A DNA stretch of 10,237 nucleotides, taken from a virus (Duplodnaviria; Heunggongvirae; Uroviricota; Caudoviricetes). Each line of letters starts with the position of its first letter. The stretch's first letter is position 1. The notes under the pieces are model-generated. The model ran no database searches and had not been told where the DNA came from. It saw only the letters and a program-made list of their open reading frames with translations. The stretch covers positions 1 to 10,237 of the IMG/VR virus record IMGVR_UViG_2778261151_000009. One strand, written 5' to 3'. Of this stretch, positions 804 to 9,872 are shown piece after piece. A program made the translations under genes and the position numbers.

Positions 804-878
<75 letters not shown>

Positions 879-881
879 ATA

Positions 882-957
<76 letters not shown>

Positions 958-959
958 AC

Positions 960-1036
960 TGGACCGCCACCGGGGACTCGAACCTCGCACACTCAACTTA
1001 AAGGGTTGACGCTCTTTCCTGATGAGCTAGTGGCGG
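960..1036 (-). tRNA. tRNA-like gene, Lys-type anticodon UUU but atypical anticodon loop (C at position 33)
   Basis: Reverse complement CCGCCACTAGCTCATCAGGAAAGAGCGTCAACCCTTTAAGTTGAGTGTGCGAGGTTCGAGTCCCCGGTGGCGGTCCA. Perfect 7-bp acceptor stem, 4-bp D stem, 5-bp anticodon stem (TCAAC/GTTGA), loop CCTTTAA, T-loop TTCGAGT, encoded CCA. Isotype uncertain. Confidence 0.55.
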
Positions 1037-1040
1037 TTGG

Positions 1041-1113
1041 TGGCCCTTGCTGGATTTGAACCAGCGACCTGGCGATTATGAGTCGCTCGCTCTCACCACT
1101 GAGCTAAAGGGCC
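1041..1113 (-). tRNA. tRNA with CAU anticodon; resembles tRNA-Ile2 (lysidine type) more than elongator tRNA-Met
   Basis: Reverse complement GGCCCTTTAGCTCAGTGGTGAGAGCGAGCGACTCATAATCGCCAGGTCGCTGGTTCAAATCCAGCAAGGGCCACCA; anticodon loop CUCAUAA. From memory the body resembles E. coli ileX-type tRNA. Confidence 0.75.
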
Positions 1114-3776: not shown

Positions 3777-3844
3777 AAGTGCGGGTGCGTTGAGGATGCC
3801 TGACACATCAGCGGTGGCGAGGGATTTCTCCCCCGCCGGGTCTC

Positions 3845-4000
3845 TTACTCCTCAGGTTCGTAAGCTGTGAAGACAGCGACCTCCGTCTGGCCGGTTCGGA
3901 TTCGTACCTCGCAGAGGTCTTTCCTCGTTACCAGTGCCGTCACTATGACGGTTAAACAGATGACGATAAGGGCGATTAACATCGCCTTTTGCTGCTTCAT
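3845..4000 (-). CDS. hok: Hok/Gef family type I toxin (51 aa)
   Basis: MKQQKAMLIALIVICLTVIVTALVTRKDLCEVRIRTGQTEVAVFTAYEPEE is a single TM helix plus the conserved Hok periplasmic tail. ORF track extends it in frame to an upstream ATG at 4057. Flanked by promoter, terminator and 5'/3' complementary elements. Confidence 0.9.
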   Translation of the reverse strand: MKQQKAMLIALIVICLTVIVTALVTRKDLCEVRIRTGQTEVAVFTAYEPEE

Positions 4001-4176
4001 AGCCTGCTTCTCCTTGCCTTTCGGCACGTAAGAGGCTAACCTACATGTGTTCAGCATGGATTGAGCCTCAGATTAATGTTAAGCGTCTTGCAGGACGCGT
4101 AATGTTAACTGGGGCTTTTCTCTATCTGCCTTTTGGTGTTCATGCCTGAGACAGATAGCCTCAAGCACCCGCAGTC

Positions 4177-4204
4177 ATTCTACTTAACTAAGATTTCCCT
4201 GCAA
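4177..4204 (-). promoter_or_regulatory. Candidate hok promoter (-35 TTGCAG, 16-bp spacer, -10 TAGAAT)
   Basis: Minus-strand reading tTTGCAGggaaatcttagttaagTAGAATgactgcGGGTGC. Predicted start falls right at the 5' element (4158-4172) that is complementary to the 3' end of the transcript. Confidence 0.4.
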
Positions 4205-4259
4205 ACCGTTTTTGTCCGGCACAGTAAATATCCAACTAAACCAATAGCGTTCGCTGTAT

Positions 4260-4439
4260 TTACCGCCAGTATTCAATGCACATGACCGCCATGAACACCC
4301 CTAAAAAAAGGGCATTTATATGTCCAAACATTAATATCAAAACATCAATTTTTTCCATATACCTTGCTGTGAAGATGATGGGCATACATGATGCGAACAA
4401 CCAGAACGCAACAAACAAAAACTGCAATGCGTTTTTCAT
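4260..4439 (-). CDS. Small hydrophobic membrane protein, possibly a lipoprotein (59 aa from ATG with strong SD)
   Basis: ORF track 4260..4478; Met14 (ATG 4439-4437) is preceded by AGGGGGAATA. Protein MKNALQFLFVAFWLFASCMPIIFTARYMEKIDVLILMFGHINALFLGVFMAVMCIEYWR has a signal-like N-terminus ending in a lipobox-like FASC and a second hydrophobic helix. Lies in an AT-rich island. Confidence 0.5.
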   Translation of the reverse strand: MKNALQFLFVAFWLFASCMPIIFTARYMEKIDVLILMFGHINALFLGVFMAVMCIEYWR

Positions 4440-4651
4440 TATTCCCCCTACAATCAATGTGCAATAACATTTAAACACACCTCAATTTGGCCGGACATAT
4501 AAATATCTAAACCAGAAAAAATCACTTACATAGCGTTACAAACTCTTTAGTCTAAATACTCATCGTAAAACATTCCCCATACTTATCAGTCCGTTCCGCG
4601 CCAGGTAGCTTATTGCCTTATCTGGCAACCTATAATCAGGTTTCCGCTTTT

Positions 4652-5074
4652 TCAGTTGGCTGGTCGTTTAACCGACATAGTTAACCCATTAATCTGGTTG
4701 CCGGATGCTGGTGGATTTTCGCGTTTTAGTTGTTCATAAAAGTGCACAGCTTTAACCAGTTCTTCTGATGTAACCGGGACTGGTGGGGCAGTGAATAAGG
4801 CCTGAATTTCATAGTTCGGCCTGTCGTTACAATCCTCTTTTTTCGGTACATATTTCCAGTCACCAACCCACAACTCCCCCTGAGAGTCCATAACACCTTT
4901 TTTCACGTAGCGATATCGCCACGCTATCGGCTCTGCTTCCAGCGATGCCCGTGCAATTTTGAATAACTCGCCCTCTACTCGCGCCATCCCTGAATTGGGG
5001 TGGCATTTCGTAATCGCTATTTTTAATTTGGCTTCTTCGATTAATTGTTCTTTTGTTAATTCAGTCATTTTCAT
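4652..5074 (-). CDS. Hypothetical phage protein (140 aa)
   Basis: ORF track; ATG start with second Met at codon 3. Upstream has AGGAGG followed by a CCGCC-TGAAAG-GGCGG hairpin. No family recognised. Confidence 0.6.
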   Translation of the reverse strand: MKMTELTKEQLIEEAKLKIAITKCHPNSGMARVEGELFKIARASLEAEPIAWRYRYVKKGVMDSQGELWVGDWKYVPKKEDCNDRPNYEIQALFTAPPVPVTSEELVKAVHFYEQLKRENPPASGNQINGLTMSVKRPAN

Positions 5075-5164
5075 TACCGCCCTTTCAGGCGGCCTCCTGA
5101 TGTTCTGAGGGTGCAGAAATCCCTCCGGTTAAGGATTAAATTTTATTTGCTGTGCTAAATTTAA

Positions 5165-5620
5165 TTATTCAGTTTTTATTCCTGCTCTCAAAACAGCCTC
5201 TGCCATTCTGATATCCGGATTTTCTGAAATCATCTTTTCCGGCGAGTCGCAATCACCACCACATTCAGTTATGCGTTCATGACCAAAACGAATTGTGGTT
5301 TTGTGCGCATTAATCATTTGTGTAAGCGCATCTGTCAATTCTGCAATGCGTTTGTCTTTAACTTCCAGCTCTTTCAGTAAAGCCAGTACGTCAGGATCGC
5401 TAACATCAACGACGGTTACGCGCGATTTCAGGTAATGCTCATCCGCAAAAGTTCGACCAGTTTTAAAATATCCATCATCCCCCTCACCTGTGCAGGCATA
5501 CACAATATGCGTTCTGGAAAATATGCGCTGTATCGACATTTCATCGCCACAAACAGGACATTCCGGCACCTGAATTGGTGAATAACGTTCACGTAATGCC
5601 TGGTAATTAGTCTTGCACAC
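5165..5620 (-). CDS. Hypothetical protein with zinc-ribbon-like Cys motifs and a coiled-coil segment (151 aa)
   Basis: ORF track; GTG start preceded by TTTTCAGGAGA. CPVCG...C and ECGGDCD motifs; LKELEVKDKRIAELTDALTQM heptad-like stretch. Overlaps the upstream gene by 14 nt. Confidence 0.6.
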   Translation of the reverse strand: MCKTNYQALRERYSPIQVPECPVCGDEMSIQRIFSRTHIVYACTGEGDDGYFKTGRTFADEHYLKSRVTVVDVSDPDVLALLKELEVKDKRIAELTDALTQMINAHKTTIRFGHERITECGGDCDSPEKMISENPDIRMAEAVLRAGIKTE

Positions 5621-5912
5621 TGGCTGTCTCCTGAAAAATCACCGCATGCCCCAGTTTCTCCGCCAGCGCCAGTTCTGCCTTAGCGCCTGCTGACCGCTGC
5701 CAGCCTTTCAGCATGTAAATCGCATCCACACAACGAATCATCGCCATGCAGATATCCATGTACTGCGGCTGTGTCAGCCCGTCCGGAAGTACTGCCGGGT
5801 TTAAGACGGTATGCCCTTCCCGTTTCAGTTCCTCTTCCGCATTGTGAAACGCCTCACGGTTGAAATTTTTATACCCGGTCATTGGACCGGCGATATAGAC
5901 TCTCACCCTCAC
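5607..5912 (-). CDS. DUF4406-like protein (nucleoside 2-deoxyribosyltransferase-like fold family), 101 aa
   Basis: N-terminus RVYIAGPMTGYKNFNREAFHNAEEELKREGHTVLNPA matches the characteristic YIAGPMTG...NF...F...G..V.NP signature. GTG start overlaps the upstream stop (GTGA); SD AGGAGG 7 nt upstream. Confidence 0.7.
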   Translation of the reverse strand: MRVRVYIAGPMTGYKNFNREAFHNAEEELKREGHTVLNPAVLPDGLTQPQYMDICMAMIRCVDAIYMLKGWQRSAGAKAELALAEKLGHAVIFQETASVQD

Positions 5913-6331
5913 GCCATCACCTCCTGAAAATTACCCTGATAAAACGACAATATGCGCTGCATAACTTCGCTCTTCCGGCACTCGCGACAGATTATGTTTA
6001 GGCGACTGTCGTAGCGACGTATTTCTCCGTCAGGTAATGACCAGATAAGGTCCGGATCAACCGCAGATGGTTTCTTCAGCTTTGCCCTTGAGAGCTTTTT
6101 ACGAGCATTTTGCCAGTCCTTACGCGCCTGTTCAGACGGGAATAACCCGTAACCAGAGTTGTATACATCGCCACTGGCAACCAGCTCTCTGGCCAGAATG
6201 CTCATCAGATATCTTGTTGCCCCAGTTTTAGCTTCCAGTTGTCGTAACGTCTCGCGCCCACTCTGGCGTACGAGTTCAAGAACCTGCCCTTTAATTTTTT
6301 CCCGCTCTTCTTGTGTAAAAACTTTTGCCAC
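5909..6331 (-). CDS. Hypothetical protein (140 aa), possible winged-helix N-terminus
   Basis: ORF track; GTG start with SD AGGAGGG 4 nt upstream. No Walker A motif, so not an obvious DnaC-like loader. Confidence 0.6.
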   Translation of the reverse strand: MAKVFTQEEREKIKGQVLELVRQSGRETLRQLEAKTGATRYLMSILARELVASGDVYNSGYGLFPSEQARKDWQNARKKLSRAKLKKPSAVDPDLIWSLPDGEIRRYDSRLNIICRECRKSEVMQRILSFYQGNFQEVMA

Positions 6332-6371
6332 AAGCCCTCCTGAAAATTACCTCATGACCAGAAATTAACAC

Positions 6372-7442
6372 TTACCCCCTGAAGCCCGGCGGAATTTCGT
6401 TATCCGGTTCAGAAATATGATTCACACAACGCTGGTTGTTCGTGCCGCTTACCGGGAGCAACCAGGGGTTCTCAAAATTCCGGTCCGGTCCAAAAAACGT
6501 CGTCGCTCGCTGAACAAATTCCGTTCCCGTTTTCCCGGTAGCCGCCAGGTATCTTGCGTAACGCCTCACGCCATCCAGCATGGCCTCTGGTGGCACCCCC
6601 TCGCGTAATCTGGCCTTCCAGGCACTGAAAGCGGATTTCTTCGGGTTTGCCCCGGCACGCAACGGGTACTCCCGCCAGACCTGTTCGAACACATCCGGAT
6701 AATCCACTCGTCCCACAGACTGCCCGGTGTTTTCCGGGACTACCCGATCGGCTTCCCGCTGAATGGCGGAATCGGCTTCAGGCTGCTGCAGTTGGTGTGA
6801 TTGCTCCGGACTTGCGGTCATCACCTGCTGCACAGCGCCCGAATCGGCTTTCAGCGCATACGCTGAATCGGCTTCCGGTGTCGTGCCTGCTGGCTGACCA
6901 GGATTGACGGTCTGAACATCCCCTGCCTGGTTCGTGGCGTTTTTTACGCCATGGACCATAGTGTTTTGATCTTCTTGATCTGTATCTTTATCTGTATCTT
7001 TATCTGTCGTGACTCGTCGTGACATGTGCGTGACATATCGTGACGCGCCGTGACAATCGCCATTTTGTTCCCGCTTTCTTTCCCTCTCTCGCTGCGCCCT
7101 CTTGCGCTCTGCAGGAGATTTTGCGGTTTGCGAAATATTGCCGTTGTCCTCTTTCAGCACCTGGCGTTTTTCCCATCCAGTGATTAAATCACCATCAAGT
7201 ACCCGCCCCTGCATCGTCTGCAAAATTGAATCAATTACCTCTTCTGTCACGTCGAGCGCACTTGCCAAATCTTCTGTCGTGACATCAATGTGACCTCGCG
7301 TGACATTTCGTGACGCGCTCACCAGGAGGTGGATATACACTGCCATCACTGTTGCAATTGGCTGCCCTGACACCCTGGCAATTGTTCGCCACTTAGGGTC
7401 ATTTGGCATGTCATGCCATAATCTGAGCCAGGCGTTAGCCAT
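6372..7442 (-). CDS. Putative replication initiator (O-like: N-terminal HTH, low-complexity linker, C-terminal domain) with iteron clusters inside the coding sequence
   Basis: ORF track 6372..7448 (GTG); ATG at 7442-7440 has SD AAGAGGTGA. Position after Cro-like and YdaT-like genes. Acidic repeat linker TTDKDTDKDTDQEDQ; basic stretch KRAQRERERKRE. Two clusters of CGTGAC direct repeats at helical-turn spacing inside the gene. Confidence 0.65.
   Translation of the reverse strand: MANAWLRLWHDMPNDPKWRTIARVSGQPIATVMAVYIHLLVSASRNVTRGHIDVTTEDLASALDVTEEVIDSILQTMQGRVLDGDLITGWEKRQVLKEDNGNISQTAKSPAERKRAQRERERKREQNGDCHGASRYVTHMSRRVTTDKDTDKDTDQEDQNTMVHGVKNATNQAGDVQTVNPGQPAGTTPEADSAYALKADSGAVQQVMTASPEQSHQLQQPEADSAIQREADRVVPENTGQSVGRVDYPDVFEQVWREYPLRAGANPKKSAFSAWKARLREGVPPEAMLDGVRRYARYLAATGKTGTEFVQRATTFFGPDRNFENPWLLPVSGTNNQRCVNHISEPDNEIPPGFRG
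7008..7054. repeat. Iteron-like cluster 1: five direct CGTGAC repeats at 10-11 bp spacing
   Basis: Copies start at 7008, 7018, 7029, 7039 and 7049, immediately preceded by a tandem 12-bp repeat ATCTGTATCTTT x2.5 (6978-7013). Confidence 0.6.
7246..7314. repeat. Iteron-like cluster 2: CGTGAC at 7278, 7299, 7309, variant TGTGAC at 7289, inverted copy GTCACG at 7246
   Basis: Same hexamer and 10-11 bp phasing as cluster 1, about 225 bp away, within the N-terminal coding part of the initiator gene. Confidence 0.55.
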
Positions 7443-7513
7443 ACTCACCTCTTTTGATACCGAATCTTTTTACTCACAAATTGCCGGAAGTGATCCGGTA
7501 TGAATATTGCGAG

Positions 7514-7939
7514 TCAATGCACAGCCACAATATTTCCTGCAGGGCCACCACGATTCATCTGGTTGAAACCAGCGATCGCCACTGCGACAAAATCATCAGC
7601 GTCTCTCACCAGTCGTTCCCGCGTCTCCACTAGTTCCCGAAAATAGGCTGAGCTATGGCTGCGCATTCGGGCCACCAGCAGAGGTGGCATTGCTTTTTCG
7701 ATAGCTGGTAACAACGCCTGAATTTTTTTAAGCGCATCAGGGGGGTCTTTCTCCACCCAGCGGAAAATTTTCTGAGTATTGCGAGCCAGGGCTTCCGGAT
7801 GGCTGTCGTCATACAGTTCCGGGAACGTCATTCCCAGCTCGAAATACGCTTTGGTAATTTTCGCAGCCGGTACTTTTTCGCCGTCCGGATGCGCCCAGGC
7901 ATTCATCGCCATGCGGATGTGTTCATGCTTGATTTTCAT
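7514..7939 (-). CDS. YdaT-like protein (position equivalent to CII in lambdoid early operons), 141 aa
   Basis: ORF track; ATG overlaps Cro-like stop as ATGA. Sits immediately downstream of the Cro-like gene. Family name from memory of Rac/CP-933P YdaT, not verified. Confidence 0.5.
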   Translation of the reverse strand: MKIKHEHIRMAMNAWAHPDGEKVPAAKITKAYFELGMTFPELYDDSHPEALARNTQKIFRWVEKDPPDALKKIQALLPAIEKAMPPLLVARMRSHSSAYFRELVETRERLVRDADDFVAVAIAGFNQMNRGGPAGNIVAVH

Positions 7940-8190
7940 GAATCAACTCCCATCAGCTTTTTCGTAGTAGTTTTATTCCTGCCAATAGTTAAAATTGCAT
8001 CGGCAGAAAATAATCCGTTTGATGCAAGAGCGATTTTTTCAGCGTAATTTGTTTCGCCGGTATATTCTGTGCGAGGCAATTTTCCGTTATCCATCCATTT
8101 ATAGATTGCTCTTTGGCTGACACCACAAACGTCGGCCACAACAGCAACGCGAACAGTTTTGATTACATCTTCAAGTGTTTTCTGGTTCAT
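7936..8190 (-). CDS. Cro-like HTH DNA-binding protein (84 aa from ATG 8190)
   Basis: ORF track 7936..8262, but the ATG at 8190-8188 has SD GAGGGTG 6 nt upstream. HTH signature VVADVCGVSQRAIYKWMDNGKLP. Divergent from the repressor gene. Confidence 0.7.
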   Translation of the reverse strand: MNQKTLEDVIKTVRVAVVADVCGVSQRAIYKWMDNGKLPRTEYTGETNYAEKIALASNGLFSADAILTIGRNKTTTKKLMGVDS

Positions 8191-8269
8191 ATCACCCTCA
8201 CAATGTGAACTTTGAGTACATGCTATAACAGAACTGACAGTACATTCAAGAGCGAATATCATTGAACTT
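8191..8269. promoter_or_regulatory. Divergent promoter/operator region between the Cro-like and repressor genes
   Basis: Repressor-side promoter: -35 CTGACA (8234-8239), 17-bp spacer, -10 TATCAT (8257-8262). Cro-side: -35 TTGAAT (plus 8244-8249), -10 TATAGC (plus 8222-8227). Two AACnnnnAGTACAT motifs at 8208-8221 and 8232-8245. Confidence 0.55.
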
Positions 8270-8689
8270 ATGGTTCATGAAGATAAAGCGCGTAAAGAGT
8301 TCGCCAGTAGGCTTGCGCTAGCCTGTGAAAACGCTGGTTATGAACAACATGGAAGGCAGGCAGAAATTGCCCGTCGAATGAAATTAACACCAAAAGCGGT
8401 TAGCAAATGGTTTAATGGCGAAACAATTCCTCGCCGGGAGAAATTAAGGGAATTAGCAACACTAATAGGAACAACACCAACCTATCTTTTGGGAGAGGAT
8501 ACAGAAGAAAGTGGACAGGTACGTTTCTATCAGGAGTTAAATCCAAGACAAAAAATCATCATTGACCTTCTGGACGAGCTCCCTGACAGTGAGACAGATG
8601 AACTTTTAAAAACTCTTGAAGAGAAAAAACAGAAGTACAATGCAATTTACGAAGAGTTAGCACGAAAGAAAAAACAAAAAGCCTCTTAA
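8270..8689 (+). CDS. CI/DicA-like XRE-family repressor lacking a peptidase domain (139 aa)
   Basis: ORF track; HTH GRQAEIARRMKLTPKAVSKWFNGETIP; C-terminal acidic/coiled segment. Divergent from Cro-like gene. No SD, with -10 placed about 7 nt before the ATG, suggesting a leaderless mRNA. Confidence 0.8.
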   Translation: MVHEDKARKEFASRLALACENAGYEQHGRQAEIARRMKLTPKAVSKWFNGETIPRREKLRELATLIGTTPTYLLGEDTEESGQVRFYQELNPRQKIIIDLLDELPDSETDELLKTLEEKKQKYNAIYEELARKKKQKAS

Positions 8690-8810: not shown

Positions 8811-8986
8811 ACCTGCCACCCACCCCGCCCCACAGAATGCAGGGCAATACTTCGAGTTACCAGGCAGTGGTCAGGGGTTAAGTAGCCAGCCCGAGGCGTA
8901 AGAACATGACGGCAGGGTTCAACTTTAATAACTATGCAGCAGGTTTTTGTTCCGCTACCCCGGCGTTAAGGGGAAATGAGGTCAGC

Positions 8987-9142
8987 ATGGATACTATCGA
9001 TCTTGGCAACAACGAATCTCTGGTGTACGGCGTGTTTCCCAACCAGGACGGCACCTTCACCGCAATGACGTATACCAAAAGCAAAACGTTTAAAACCGAA
9101 TCTGGAGCGCGTCGCTGGCTGGAAAGAAATTCAGGTGGGTGA
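8987..9142 (+). CDS. ydfA: YdfA-like small protein (51 aa)
   Basis: Internal ATG of ORF track 8906..9142 with SD GAGGT 4 nt upstream. Protein MDTIDLGNNESLVYGVFPNQDGTFTAMTYTKSKTFKTESGARRWLERNSGG. Size and position after the DicA-like repressor match Qin ydfA (from memory). Confidence 0.6.
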   Translation: MDTIDLGNNESLVYGVFPNQDGTFTAMTYTKSKTFKTESGARRWLERNSGG

Positions 9143-9591: not shown

Positions 9592-9703
9592 TTGAAAACC
9601 AGAACGGGTGGAATTATAGTGCACCTGCACCTCATAAAACGGGTGCCGGGCGTGGAAACCCGAAATCATTCACGGCGCATAACCGCGCTCAGGCGGTTTT
9701 TTT
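9592..9703 (+). promoter_or_regulatory. Promoter-terminator unit: -35 TTGAAA (9592-9597), 17 bp, -10 TATAGT (9615-9620); terminator hairpin ACCGC-gctcag-GCGGT plus T7 (9682-9703)
   Basis: Near-consensus sigma70 elements followed about 60-75 nt later by a stem-loop and seven T. Could be a small RNA or an attenuating leader for the Rha-family gene. Confidence 0.4.
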
Positions 9704-9872
9704 ATGCGTTAAGCACAGCCACATTCGCATTATGGTGGGGCGTGCAGGGCAACCGCAAGGCTGGCCGGGTTCCGTGATGACCGGTATTTCCACCCCTGTA
9801 CGTCTCACCACCCTTATGGTCGTGGAAAACCTCGGTGGTGAGTTAATCAAATTCATCGCGGAGGCTGCCATC

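Follow-up and report, generated by a model that had tools for sequence, protein, structure and literature searches.

Four genes behind the replication initiator of an Escherichia coli lambdoid prophage as independently shuffled ren/nin-type cargo

The 10,237-nucleotide stretch of viral DNA analyzed here (IMG/VR record IMGVR_UViG_2778261151_000009; hereafter the window) belongs to an Escherichia coli lambdoid prophage of the Qin/Rac type. At positions 4652-6331, between the replication initiator gene and a hok/sok toxin-antitoxin module, it carries four small genes that a preliminary description had presented as coupled genes of unknown function, possibly a functional system for nucleotide modification, defense or anti-defense. 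We conclude, with a probability of about three in four, that this segment is a 'ren plus nin-like' accessory stretch whose four genes are functionally independent and freely shuffled, rather than parts of one system. All four open reading frames (ORFs) lie where that description had placed them, on the minus strand, and we refer to them as g1 to g4:

5909-6331, minus strand: g1, DUF977/Ren-like protein, 140 amino acids, GTG start (Pfam DUF977 and phrog_142)
5607-5912, minus strand: g2, DUF4406 protein, 101 amino acids, GTG start (Pfam DUF4406 and phrog_355)
5165-5620, minus strand: g3, Ead/Ea22-like modular protein, 151 amino acids, GTG start (Pfam Ead_Ea22)
4652-5074, minus strand: g4, phrog_660 protein, 140 amino acids, ATG start; RefSeq uses the second ATG, at 5068 (phrog_660, 6.3e-47)

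Because each has strong family or homologue support, none of them is a chance ORF. They follow directly downstream of the initiator gene (6372-7448) and end upstream of hok/sok (3845-4170), in the position that accessory cargo takes in lambdoid phages, just as the preliminary description had it.

The four genes occur independently of one another

The distribution of the genes carries the main conclusion. We searched 5,426 complete E. coli genomes by megablast, scoring the block as present where at least 80% of its length was covered. The whole block was found in nine. Taken singly, the genes differ 200-fold in frequency: g1 occurs in 3,978 genomes (~73%), g2 in 1,199 (about a fifth), g3 in 29 and full-length g4 in 20, with partial copies of g4 in 2,057. 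The same picture emerges from IMG/VR. Of 79 loci anchored on g1, 12 contain g2, 3 contain g3 and 31 contain g4. Sixty distinct complete slots reaching from g1 to hok include 27 that hold none of g2-g4, 21 with g4 only, 6 with g2 only, 2 with g2 and g4, and 3 with all three; g2 and g4 share a slot in 5 cases where chance predicts 4.8, that is, they assort independently. Every combination of presence and absence is seen in related prophages, and the slot itself is highly variable, measuring 1.1-4.8 kb and existing in 88 distinct versions that comprise 134 ORF clusters, with QueH, DUF7167, zinc-ribbon proteins and a Q-like protein as alternative cargo.

The independence extends beyond E. coli. 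In 80 species-representative genomes with a DUF4406 gene, ranging from Enterobacterales to Planctomycetota at 40-94% identity, DUF977 lies nearby in 2, a g3 homologue in 1 and a g4 homologue in 2, and no neighboring family recurs more than three times. Searches of NCBIfam and of the PADLOC defense families (E ≤ 0.01) returned no match for any of g1-g4. Given the 200-fold spread in frequency, the presence of the block in nine genomes, the occurrence of all combinations and the absence of PADLOC matches, the idea of one functional system falls for lack of conserved co-occurrence. Nor could any of the four be assigned with confidence to an ordinary role in replication or recombination, the other outcome that the preliminary description had set against a system.

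Two observations weigh against independence and have to be accounted for. Of 15 distinct slots with g3, 14 have it placed between g2 and g4, and the g1-g4 block adjoins two different replication modules: in ~7 genomes the whole block, at 92% identity, stands beside a module with a DnaC-like ATP-binding protein. Together with the overlaps that would couple translation of g1, g2 and g3, and with the presence of g1 upstream of g2 in 66 of 80 loci anchored on g2, these could point to a single module for nucleotide modification, defense or anti-defense, in which the DUF4406 protein is catalytic and the other three serve as regulators or adaptors. We regard such a module as highly improbable. The position of g1 upstream of g2 is expected, because g1 is a backbone gene that precedes nearly any cargo. 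The linkage of g3 most simply reflects shared ancestry, since g3 is near-clonal (99% identity or more in 25 of 30 records). Overlaps at the same ribosome-binding-site (RBS) motif occur with alternative cassettes too, DUF4406 does without the other three genes across the 80 other species, and g4 is a decayed allele, as described below.

One further contig deserves a comment. A 3-kb sequence labeled 'MAG: Collinsella sp.' (L163) carries DUF977 and DUF4406 genes that share 94% identity with the E. coli prophage. Most likely this contig stems from a prophage of E. coli and was mis-binned into a Collinsella metagenome-assembled genome.

g1 is a DUF977 protein linked at profile level to lambda Ren

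g1 matches Pfam DUF977 (PF06163) over the entire profile (positions 1-134 of 134; 3.9e-30, 105.1 bits against a cut-off of 22.1) and phrog_142, annotated 'Ren-like exclusion protein', over positions 1-115 of 116 (2.4e-46). Lambda Ren matches the same phrog_142 (1.6e-41, positions 11-110 of 116). The label 'unknown function' is therefore too sweeping for all four genes, in that g1 belongs to a PHROG that contains lambda Ren. g1 also has a match to phrog_2391, 'DNA binding protein' (1.1e-5), and the N-terminal halves of both g1 and Ren match winged-helix or MarR-type DNA-binding families in profile searches; the N-terminus of g1 is thus a predicted winged-helix-type DNA-binding region. At its other end g1 bears the conserved motif ICRECRKSEVMQRIL. 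The best 120 homologues of g1 listed are all at least 89% identical to it.

Several results limit how far the relationship to Ren can be taken. Pairwise likeness is confined to the C-terminal 20-23 amino acids, NIICRECRKSEVMQRILSFY in g1 and NLVFKECRQSAAMKRVLAVY in Ren (BLASTP E 5e-6; hhalign probability 79%), neither pairwise BLASTP nor hhalign found similarity over the full length, lambda Ren does not match Pfam DUF977, and the literature searched gave no functional information on DUF977 or LygF. Since the two proteins have phrog_142 in common and align only at the C-terminal motif, their link is one of profiles and not of pairwise similarity. An identification of DUF977 with YdaW of Rac was considered and dropped: the 'ydaW' in the annotation of phage Rac-SA53 is another gene.

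g1 is the near-constant backbone gene of the slot and would encode a small Ren-family DNA-binding protein right behind the replication genes, as ren is behind P; it starts 40 nt past the initiator gene, and lambda ren overlaps the end of P. By analogy with Ren, its most likely role is to modulate exclusion or events linked to replication. Lambda ren has been described as 'likely involved in DNA replication', and the Rex proteins contact O and Ren in two-hybrid assays (bioRxiv 10.1101/2021.04.19.439022). These reports, the winged-helix or MarR-like matches of both proteins, and the location of g1 always at the 3' end of the replication genes, whichever type these are, would suit a replication accessory factor or a transcription regulator tied to the replication module rather than an anti-exclusion protein. 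We consider this restricted role a serious contender at somewhat less than even odds: escape from Rex exclusion is the sole phenotype tied to the Ren family name, the window contains no rexAB, and the replication and exclusion roles of g1 can both hold. The Ren-like identity ties DUF977, for all its prevalence in E. coli, to a classical and poorly understood lambda gene.

g2 is predicted to adopt a minimal deoxyribosyltransferase fold

g2 is a clear DUF4406 protein (PF14359; 9.1e-38; 129 bits, where the cut-off is 22; positions 2-91 of the 91-position profile) and matches phrog_355 at 5e-48. The signature YIAGPMTG, from which nucleotide or nucleoside chemistry had been suggested, is indeed present, and its residues Y6, I7, A8, G9 and M11 are invariant among 39 homologues. 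An AlphaFold2 model built from this 39-sequence alignment reached a pLDDT of 90.4 and a pTM of 0.83. Foldseek matched the model to PDB entries of nucleoside 2'-deoxyribosyltransferases (NDTs), of human and rat DNPH1, and of the CMP N-glycosidases MilB and BcmB, each with a probability of 1.00 and with TMq values of 0.64-0.77. As modeled, g2 is a minimal member of the NDT/DNPH1 fold, the alpha/beta type of NDT enzymes that resembles flavodoxin, and with Pfam, model and Foldseek all pointing to the N-deoxyribosyltransferase structural superfamily, the suggested chemistry appears fair. DNPH1, also called Rcl, is a 2'-deoxynucleoside 5'-phosphate N-hydrolase.

Upon examination of the alignment, we found that Y6, D53, S74 and E80 of g2 are invariant. 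The spacing of Y6, D53 and E80 resembles that of Y7, D62 and E88 in CtNDT and of D80 and E104 in human DNPH1. PDB titles list mutations of Y7, D62 and E88 in the Chroococcidiopsis enzyme and of D80 in human DNPH1. In the human DNPH1 sequence a Glu follows D80 by 24 residues and a Ser precedes that Glu by six. The Ser-x5-Glu arrangement of g2 is likewise that of Ser87 and Glu93 in rat DNPH1, where Ser87 binds the 5'-phosphate and Glu93 the ribose (PMC3834327). Judged by the model and the alignment, g2 would have in common with DNPH1/Rcl, MilB and BcmB the fold, an N-terminal Tyr, a mid-chain Asp and the Ser-x5-Glu pair.

The differences from these enzymes count against reading too much into the match. 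An hhalign comparison of the DUF4406 alignment with human DNPH1 was not significant, so the proposed equivalence of Y6, D53, S74 and E80 to catalytic residues leans on fold, invariance and spacing, and was drawn from the latter two rather than from a residue-level superposition. g2 is ~50 residues shorter than DNPH1, MilB and BcmB, to which it is 17-22% identical and shows no significant sequence-profile match; the same shortfall separates it from the NDTs (TMt ~0.5 for NDT and DNPH1). Missing from g2 are the C-terminal elements by which NDT and DNPH1 complete the neighboring active site, and so are the segments that bring in the second phosphate-binding Ser from the partner subunit. PDB sequence searches, made with each of the four proteins and with the DUF4406 profile, returned no meaningful match.

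The family is widely distributed, being present in 519 of 50,697 phage records (~1%), among them phages of Vibrio, Arthrobacter, Gordonia, Mycobacterium, Pseudomonas and others. The phrog_355 profile has 249 positions, of which g2 matches 73-177, implying that longer family members exist. In an Edwardsiella anguillarum locus (L171, 3575-4303), one ORF seems to place DUF4406 in frame behind an N-terminal module of the g4 type ('TKERLLQIKQWRE…ALASLAAKPV…LYNAPP'); it may be a true fusion or an artefact of calling the longest ORF.

Possible activities of g2

We favor a role for g2 as an N-glycosidase or base-exchanging enzyme that would act on a (deoxy)nucleoside 5'-monophosphate via a covalent glutamyl-sugar intermediate, and would thereby keep the nucleotide pool adjusted or clean while phage DNA is being synthesized. 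A monophosphate substrate is preferred because the Ser-x5-Glu pair is arranged as in DNPH1, because a phage precedent exists in DmtZ, and because of the associations of this fold with pyrophosphohydrolases. DmtZ is an NDT-family dAMP hydrolase and deoxyribose-5-phosphate transferase of phages with Z genomes, often fused to a dUTPase-like enzyme (PMC12884076). Like g2, it is phage-encoded and of the same superfamily; its own substrate is a dNMP. An association with dNTP pyrophosphatases is common to DmtZ and several viral proteins of the DUF4406 fold: in a viral structure library the fold of g2 is found inside proteins named dATP/dGTP diphosphohydrolase and dUTPase, and in phage Nebkiss a g2 homologue overlaps and precedes a MazG-like gene. 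DmtZ differs in being ~145 amino acids long, with a Tyr6/Asn77/Glu103 triad, and in building Z-DNA together with PurZ and DutZ; the window contains no genes of the PurZ or DutZ type, and nothing in it suggests modified DNA. We made no use of the actinophage labels 'deoxycytidylate deaminase', 'MazG-like pyrophosphatase' and 'hydrolase', which sit on the small DUF4406-like protein itself and do not denote fusions. The literature searched yielded no functional data for DUF4406, which likewise tells against any firm assignment.

A different substrate is conceivable on the strength of the structural matches themselves. The best Foldseek matches of g2 are the NDTs of T. brucei, L. mexicana and Chroococcidiopsis, and PHROG and many phage annotations name the family nucleoside 2'-deoxyribosyltransferase, as if g2 swapped bases between deoxynucleosides for salvage. 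Classical NDTs carry an Asp at the position of the Ser (Asp92/Glu98 in the L. leichmannii NDT). In g2 this position, six residues before the invariant Glu, is an invariant Ser, the residue that binds the 5'-phosphate in DNPH1; fusion or adjacency to dNTP pyrophosphohydrolases, which yield dNMPs, also argues against an enzyme restricted to nucleosides, and the annotated names are transferred labels, not tests. A true NDT thus appears unlikely. g2 might also be a counter-defense enzyme that cuts the N-glycosidic bond of a nucleotide immune signal or of a toxic nucleotide made by a host defense. It is a small stand-alone enzyme within the early lytic operon of a temperate phage, its family is widespread in unrelated phages, and its fold is related, through weak matches, to nucleotide-processing domains of the TIR/SLOG type. 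We consider this distinctly improbable: the literature searched offered no characterized anti-defense precedent for the fold, direct evidence is lacking, and in other phages the gene stands among genes for DNA replication and nucleotide metabolism, which favors a role in pool metabolism. A broader proposal, by which DUF4406 would be the minimal core of an uncharacterized class of phage nucleotide N-glycosidases with a defense-related or non-canonical nucleotide as target, strikes us as improbable; if true, g2 would be a widespread single-gene factor for counter-defense or pool sanitizing. DUF4406 is a very common phage and prophage family with an intact-looking active site of the NDT/DNPH1 type, and would offer a cheap and well-defined biochemical target.

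g3 and g4 belong to a module-shuffling Ead/Ea22-type family

Pfam Ead_Ea22 (PF13935) matches g3 over residues 4-105 at 2.2e-20, its 74.1 bits exceeding the cut-off of 27. The protein consists of the N-terminal motif 'NYQALRERY', a putative zinc site of the form CxxC-x18-C-x18-H, a coiled coil (~75-105) and a private C-terminal tail. C21, C24, C43 and H62 are kept in six relatives, at 43-56% identity (among them ES18 gp41, ST64B Sb32, D6 orf92, P88 gp56 and GE_vB_TR), which also have a helical 'VLALLDELE…KRIAELE' segment past the Cys motif and differ from one another throughout their C-terminal parts. An earlier characterization of g3 as zinc-ribbon-like with a coiled coil is thus partly supported, by the conserved Cys/His residues and the coil; there is a single CxxC knuckle, and the matches of g3 to Pfam zinc-ribbon families stay below their cut-offs.

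Like lambda Ea22, g3 combines a short N-terminus, a coil and a variable C-terminus. Ea22 has been described as a tetramer in which a short N-terminus is followed by a coiled coil and by a C-terminal domain that varies (PMC10834534), and g3 appears to fit this description in architecture only. We detected no pairwise similarity between g3 and lambda Ea22 (BLASTP E = 7), and a PDB sequence search gave no match to the Ea22 C-terminal domain. g3 is unlike that solved domain, and its zinc-type insert is found only in a small subgroup (ES18 gp41, ST64B Sb32, D6 orf92). The genes also differ in place: lambda ea22 and P22 ead belong to the early-left exo-xis/ea region, whereas g3 and g4 lie in the early-right region.

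g4 matched nothing in Pfam, Ead_Ea22 included. Aligned with 23 relatives, it shows a variable helical N-terminal module followed by a near-invariant core, residues 47-122, that reads 'EPIAWRYRYVKKG…YEIQALFTAPP…FYEQLKRENPP'. Relatives of 170-201 amino acids contain two 'NPP' repeats, between which g4 lacks 30 residues, and past this internal deletion its reading frame breaks. The lost C-terminus can still be read out of frame:

4560-4667, minus strand: out-of-frame remnant of the g4 C-terminus, '…SQLKKRKPDYRLPDKAISYLARNGLISMGNVLR*' in the translation of 4556-4700(-), against '…SQLKKAQPDCKLPEKAMDYLKRNGLISVEDVLR' at the C-terminus of the relative P0134

Because of the 30-residue deletion and a C-terminus readable only out of frame, g4 in the window is an internally deleted, frameshifted and decayed allele. 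Its AlphaFold2 model (pLDDT 52.8) was unusable. An exhaustive search of 1.84 billion cluster representatives returned 225 relatives, mostly as piecewise matches; the named ones are all from Escherichia and Shigella, and 16 of 44 sampled relatives carry a DUF551 domain. No activity or phenotype of phrog_660 was found in the literature searched.

The two genes are nevertheless linked by their relatives, which exchange N- and C-termini between phrog_660 and the Ead/Ea22 family. ST64B Sb32 has an N-terminus of the g3 type and ends with the same tail that g4 has lost, and the g4 relative P0145 begins with the Ead-type motif 'NYQALRE', which marks g3 and g4 as two products of a single family that shuffles its modules. 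They would be built from Ead/Ea22-type modules, namely an N-terminal helix or zinc part, then a coiled coil or linker, and at the C-terminus a domain that can be exchanged, and by analogy with Ea22 they are probably oligomeric protein-binding adaptors that act on phage development.

Gene junctions and expression

The preliminary description called the four genes coupled. This is right for g1, g2 and g3, which overlap: the stop codon of g1 and the GTG of g2 share a 4-nt GTGA overlap, and the GTG of g3 lies 14 nt inside g2. It does not extend to g4, which is set off by a spacer with hairpins. The GTG of g1, in turn, is placed 5 nt downstream of an AGGAGG. The elements concerned are:

5075-5164, minus strand: g3-g4 spacer of 90 nt, with a 7-bp GC hairpin between an AGGAGG and the g4 ATG
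6337-6346, minus strand: junction 10-mer TTTTCAGGAG (Shine-Dalgarno sequence plus U-tract) before g1
5921-5930, minus strand: exact copy of the 10-mer before g2
5628-5637, minus strand: exact copy of the 10-mer before g3

The spacer RNA folds with -26.2 kcal/mol (z = -1.8). A promoter of its own for g4 was considered and rejected: the promoter-like site of the spacer, at 5191-5164, is weak (10/12 match), and such sites are no commoner in the region than in shuffles. No terminator-like site was predicted on the minus strand in 3800-7600. Since no terminator is predicted, and gene order and strand agree, co-transcription with the replication genes is the simplest reading. Transcription of g1-g4 would probably start at the early rightward promoter, as for the cro-like, YdaT/CII-like and replication genes, and their products would then be made in lytic growth or upon induction and not in the repressed lysogen.

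With three copies in the window, the 10-mer exceeds the expectation of 0.04, and a count of three was not attained in any of 200 shuffles. Across 146 related loci the gene strand has 180 copies and the opposite strand none; these copies stand in front of g1, of g2 and of several alternative genes of the Ead-like kind. The 10-mer comprises the RBS of g1, g2 and g3 and also the codons for the '…FQE' C-terminus of the preceding gene. It is plausibly the junction shared in cassette exchange, by which the g1-g4 arrangement would have been assembled, and the region may then be a clean example of exchange at a repeated, RBS-containing junction. Among related slots, L096 (216-995) and seven other loci hold an epoxyqueuosine reductase QueH (Pfam QueH, 2.7e-65), a Q-like antiterminator (PF06530) or DUF7167.

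Comparison with known arrangements

The closest known arrangement is the ren plus nin region of lambda (ren-ninA..I, between P and Q). Both stretches occupy the same place in the early-right operon, from the replication genes to Q, with a first gene that belongs to the PHROG of Ren, and as in the nin region the genes are small, packed, often overlapping, non-essential and variable between related phages. Downstream lie RusA, DUF968 and Q here, and NinG/Rap and Q in lambda. Apart from the Ren-like gene, the nin genes are absent from the window, its cargo is instead DUF4406 plus Ead/Ea22-type genes, and hok/sok has been inserted. The Ren-like gene itself is longer, g1 having 140 amino acids against 96 in lambda Ren, with direct likeness restricted to the C-terminal motif.

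Among sequenced phages the closest is Escherichia phage Rac-SA53 (KU052037), in which the order lygF-rac19-ead is the same: DUF977 (lygF), DUF4406 (rac19, 93% identical to g2) and an Ead-type gene, with mok/hok further downstream. Its Ead allele differs, having only the N-terminal motif and the coil in common with g3, and so do its replication genes (ydaU/ydaV) and its extra cargo, which includes an IS1. g1-g4 are thus ordinary ren/nin-type mosaic cargo whose family labels already stand in RefSeq, and they represent no new kind of system. As a system these annotated and independently shuffled prophage genes are without importance.

Prophage context and neighboring genes

Bases 4500-6500 of the window are 99.9% identical to E. 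coli FDAARGOS_944 (NZ_CP065613). The RefSeq gene order of that genome matches the window: replisome organizer/DNA-binding protein, DUF977, DUF4406, ead/Ea22-like, a hypothetical protein, hokD, DUF968, RusA, Q and four tRNAs, followed by lysis genes. The features surrounding g1-g4 in the window are:

9627-9815, plus strand: isrK (67.7 bits) and adjoining C4 antisense RNA (76.3 bits), downstream of the repressor/ydfA side
8906-9142, strand opposite to the operon: ydfA
8270-8689, strand opposite to the operon: DicA-like repressor gene
7936-8262, minus strand: cro/DicC-like gene of the early-right operon
7514-7939, minus strand: YdaT/CII-like gene of the early-right operon
6372-7448, minus strand: replication initiator/replisome organizer, 358 amino acids (phrog_3729, 3.5e-256)
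4260-4478, minus strand: hydrophobic ORF, 72 amino acids, between g4 and sok/hok
3845-4170, minus strand: complete hok/mok/sok type I toxin-antitoxin module (HOK_GEF, 3e-23; Rfam sok, 118.9 bits)
Downstream of sok/hok, minus strand: DUF968-HNH, RusA, Q (1312-2001) and one small ORF
804-1113, minus strand: four tRNA genes, between Q and holin
Beyond the four tRNAs, minus strand: P21-type holin

The 72-residue ORF has two putative membrane-spanning stretches, judged by eye, and matched a family in none of the libraries searched; 26 of 88 related slots contain it with ~90% identity or better, usually alongside g4. The tRNA genes are Gly-TCC, Thr-TGT, Lys-TTT and one with a CAT anticodon that ARAGORN calls Met and RefSeq Ile, that is, it is probably lysidine-modified. 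The isrK/C4 pair is an antisense control element of the P1/P7 type, commonly found upstream of an antirepressor gene.

Replication initiator

The preliminary description had recognized no helicase loader in this region. As worded this needs amending: the C-terminal half of the initiator, residues 130-358, matches phrog_1701 (8.7e-63), which is named 'DnaD-like helicase loader', a PHROG label and not a tested function. The N-terminal half is of the initiator type (phrog_21423/phrog_15931), and a profile search of Pfam gave no match for the protein. Its last 24 residues weakly resemble the C-terminus of DnaT, at 19 bits far below the cut-off of 201. In the ~7 genomes mentioned above, the DnaC-like 'ATP-binding protein' takes the place of the initiator upstream of the same four genes.

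Within the initiator gene, a tandem of three 12-nt repeats (6973-7008) encodes the linker 'TDKDTDKDTD'. The gene also contains two clusters of four CGTGAC/TGTGAC repeats each, at 7016-7054 and 7276-7314, spaced ~9-11 nt within a cluster and lying 260 nt apart; these arrays are iteron candidates for an origin inside the initiator gene, as in lambda O.

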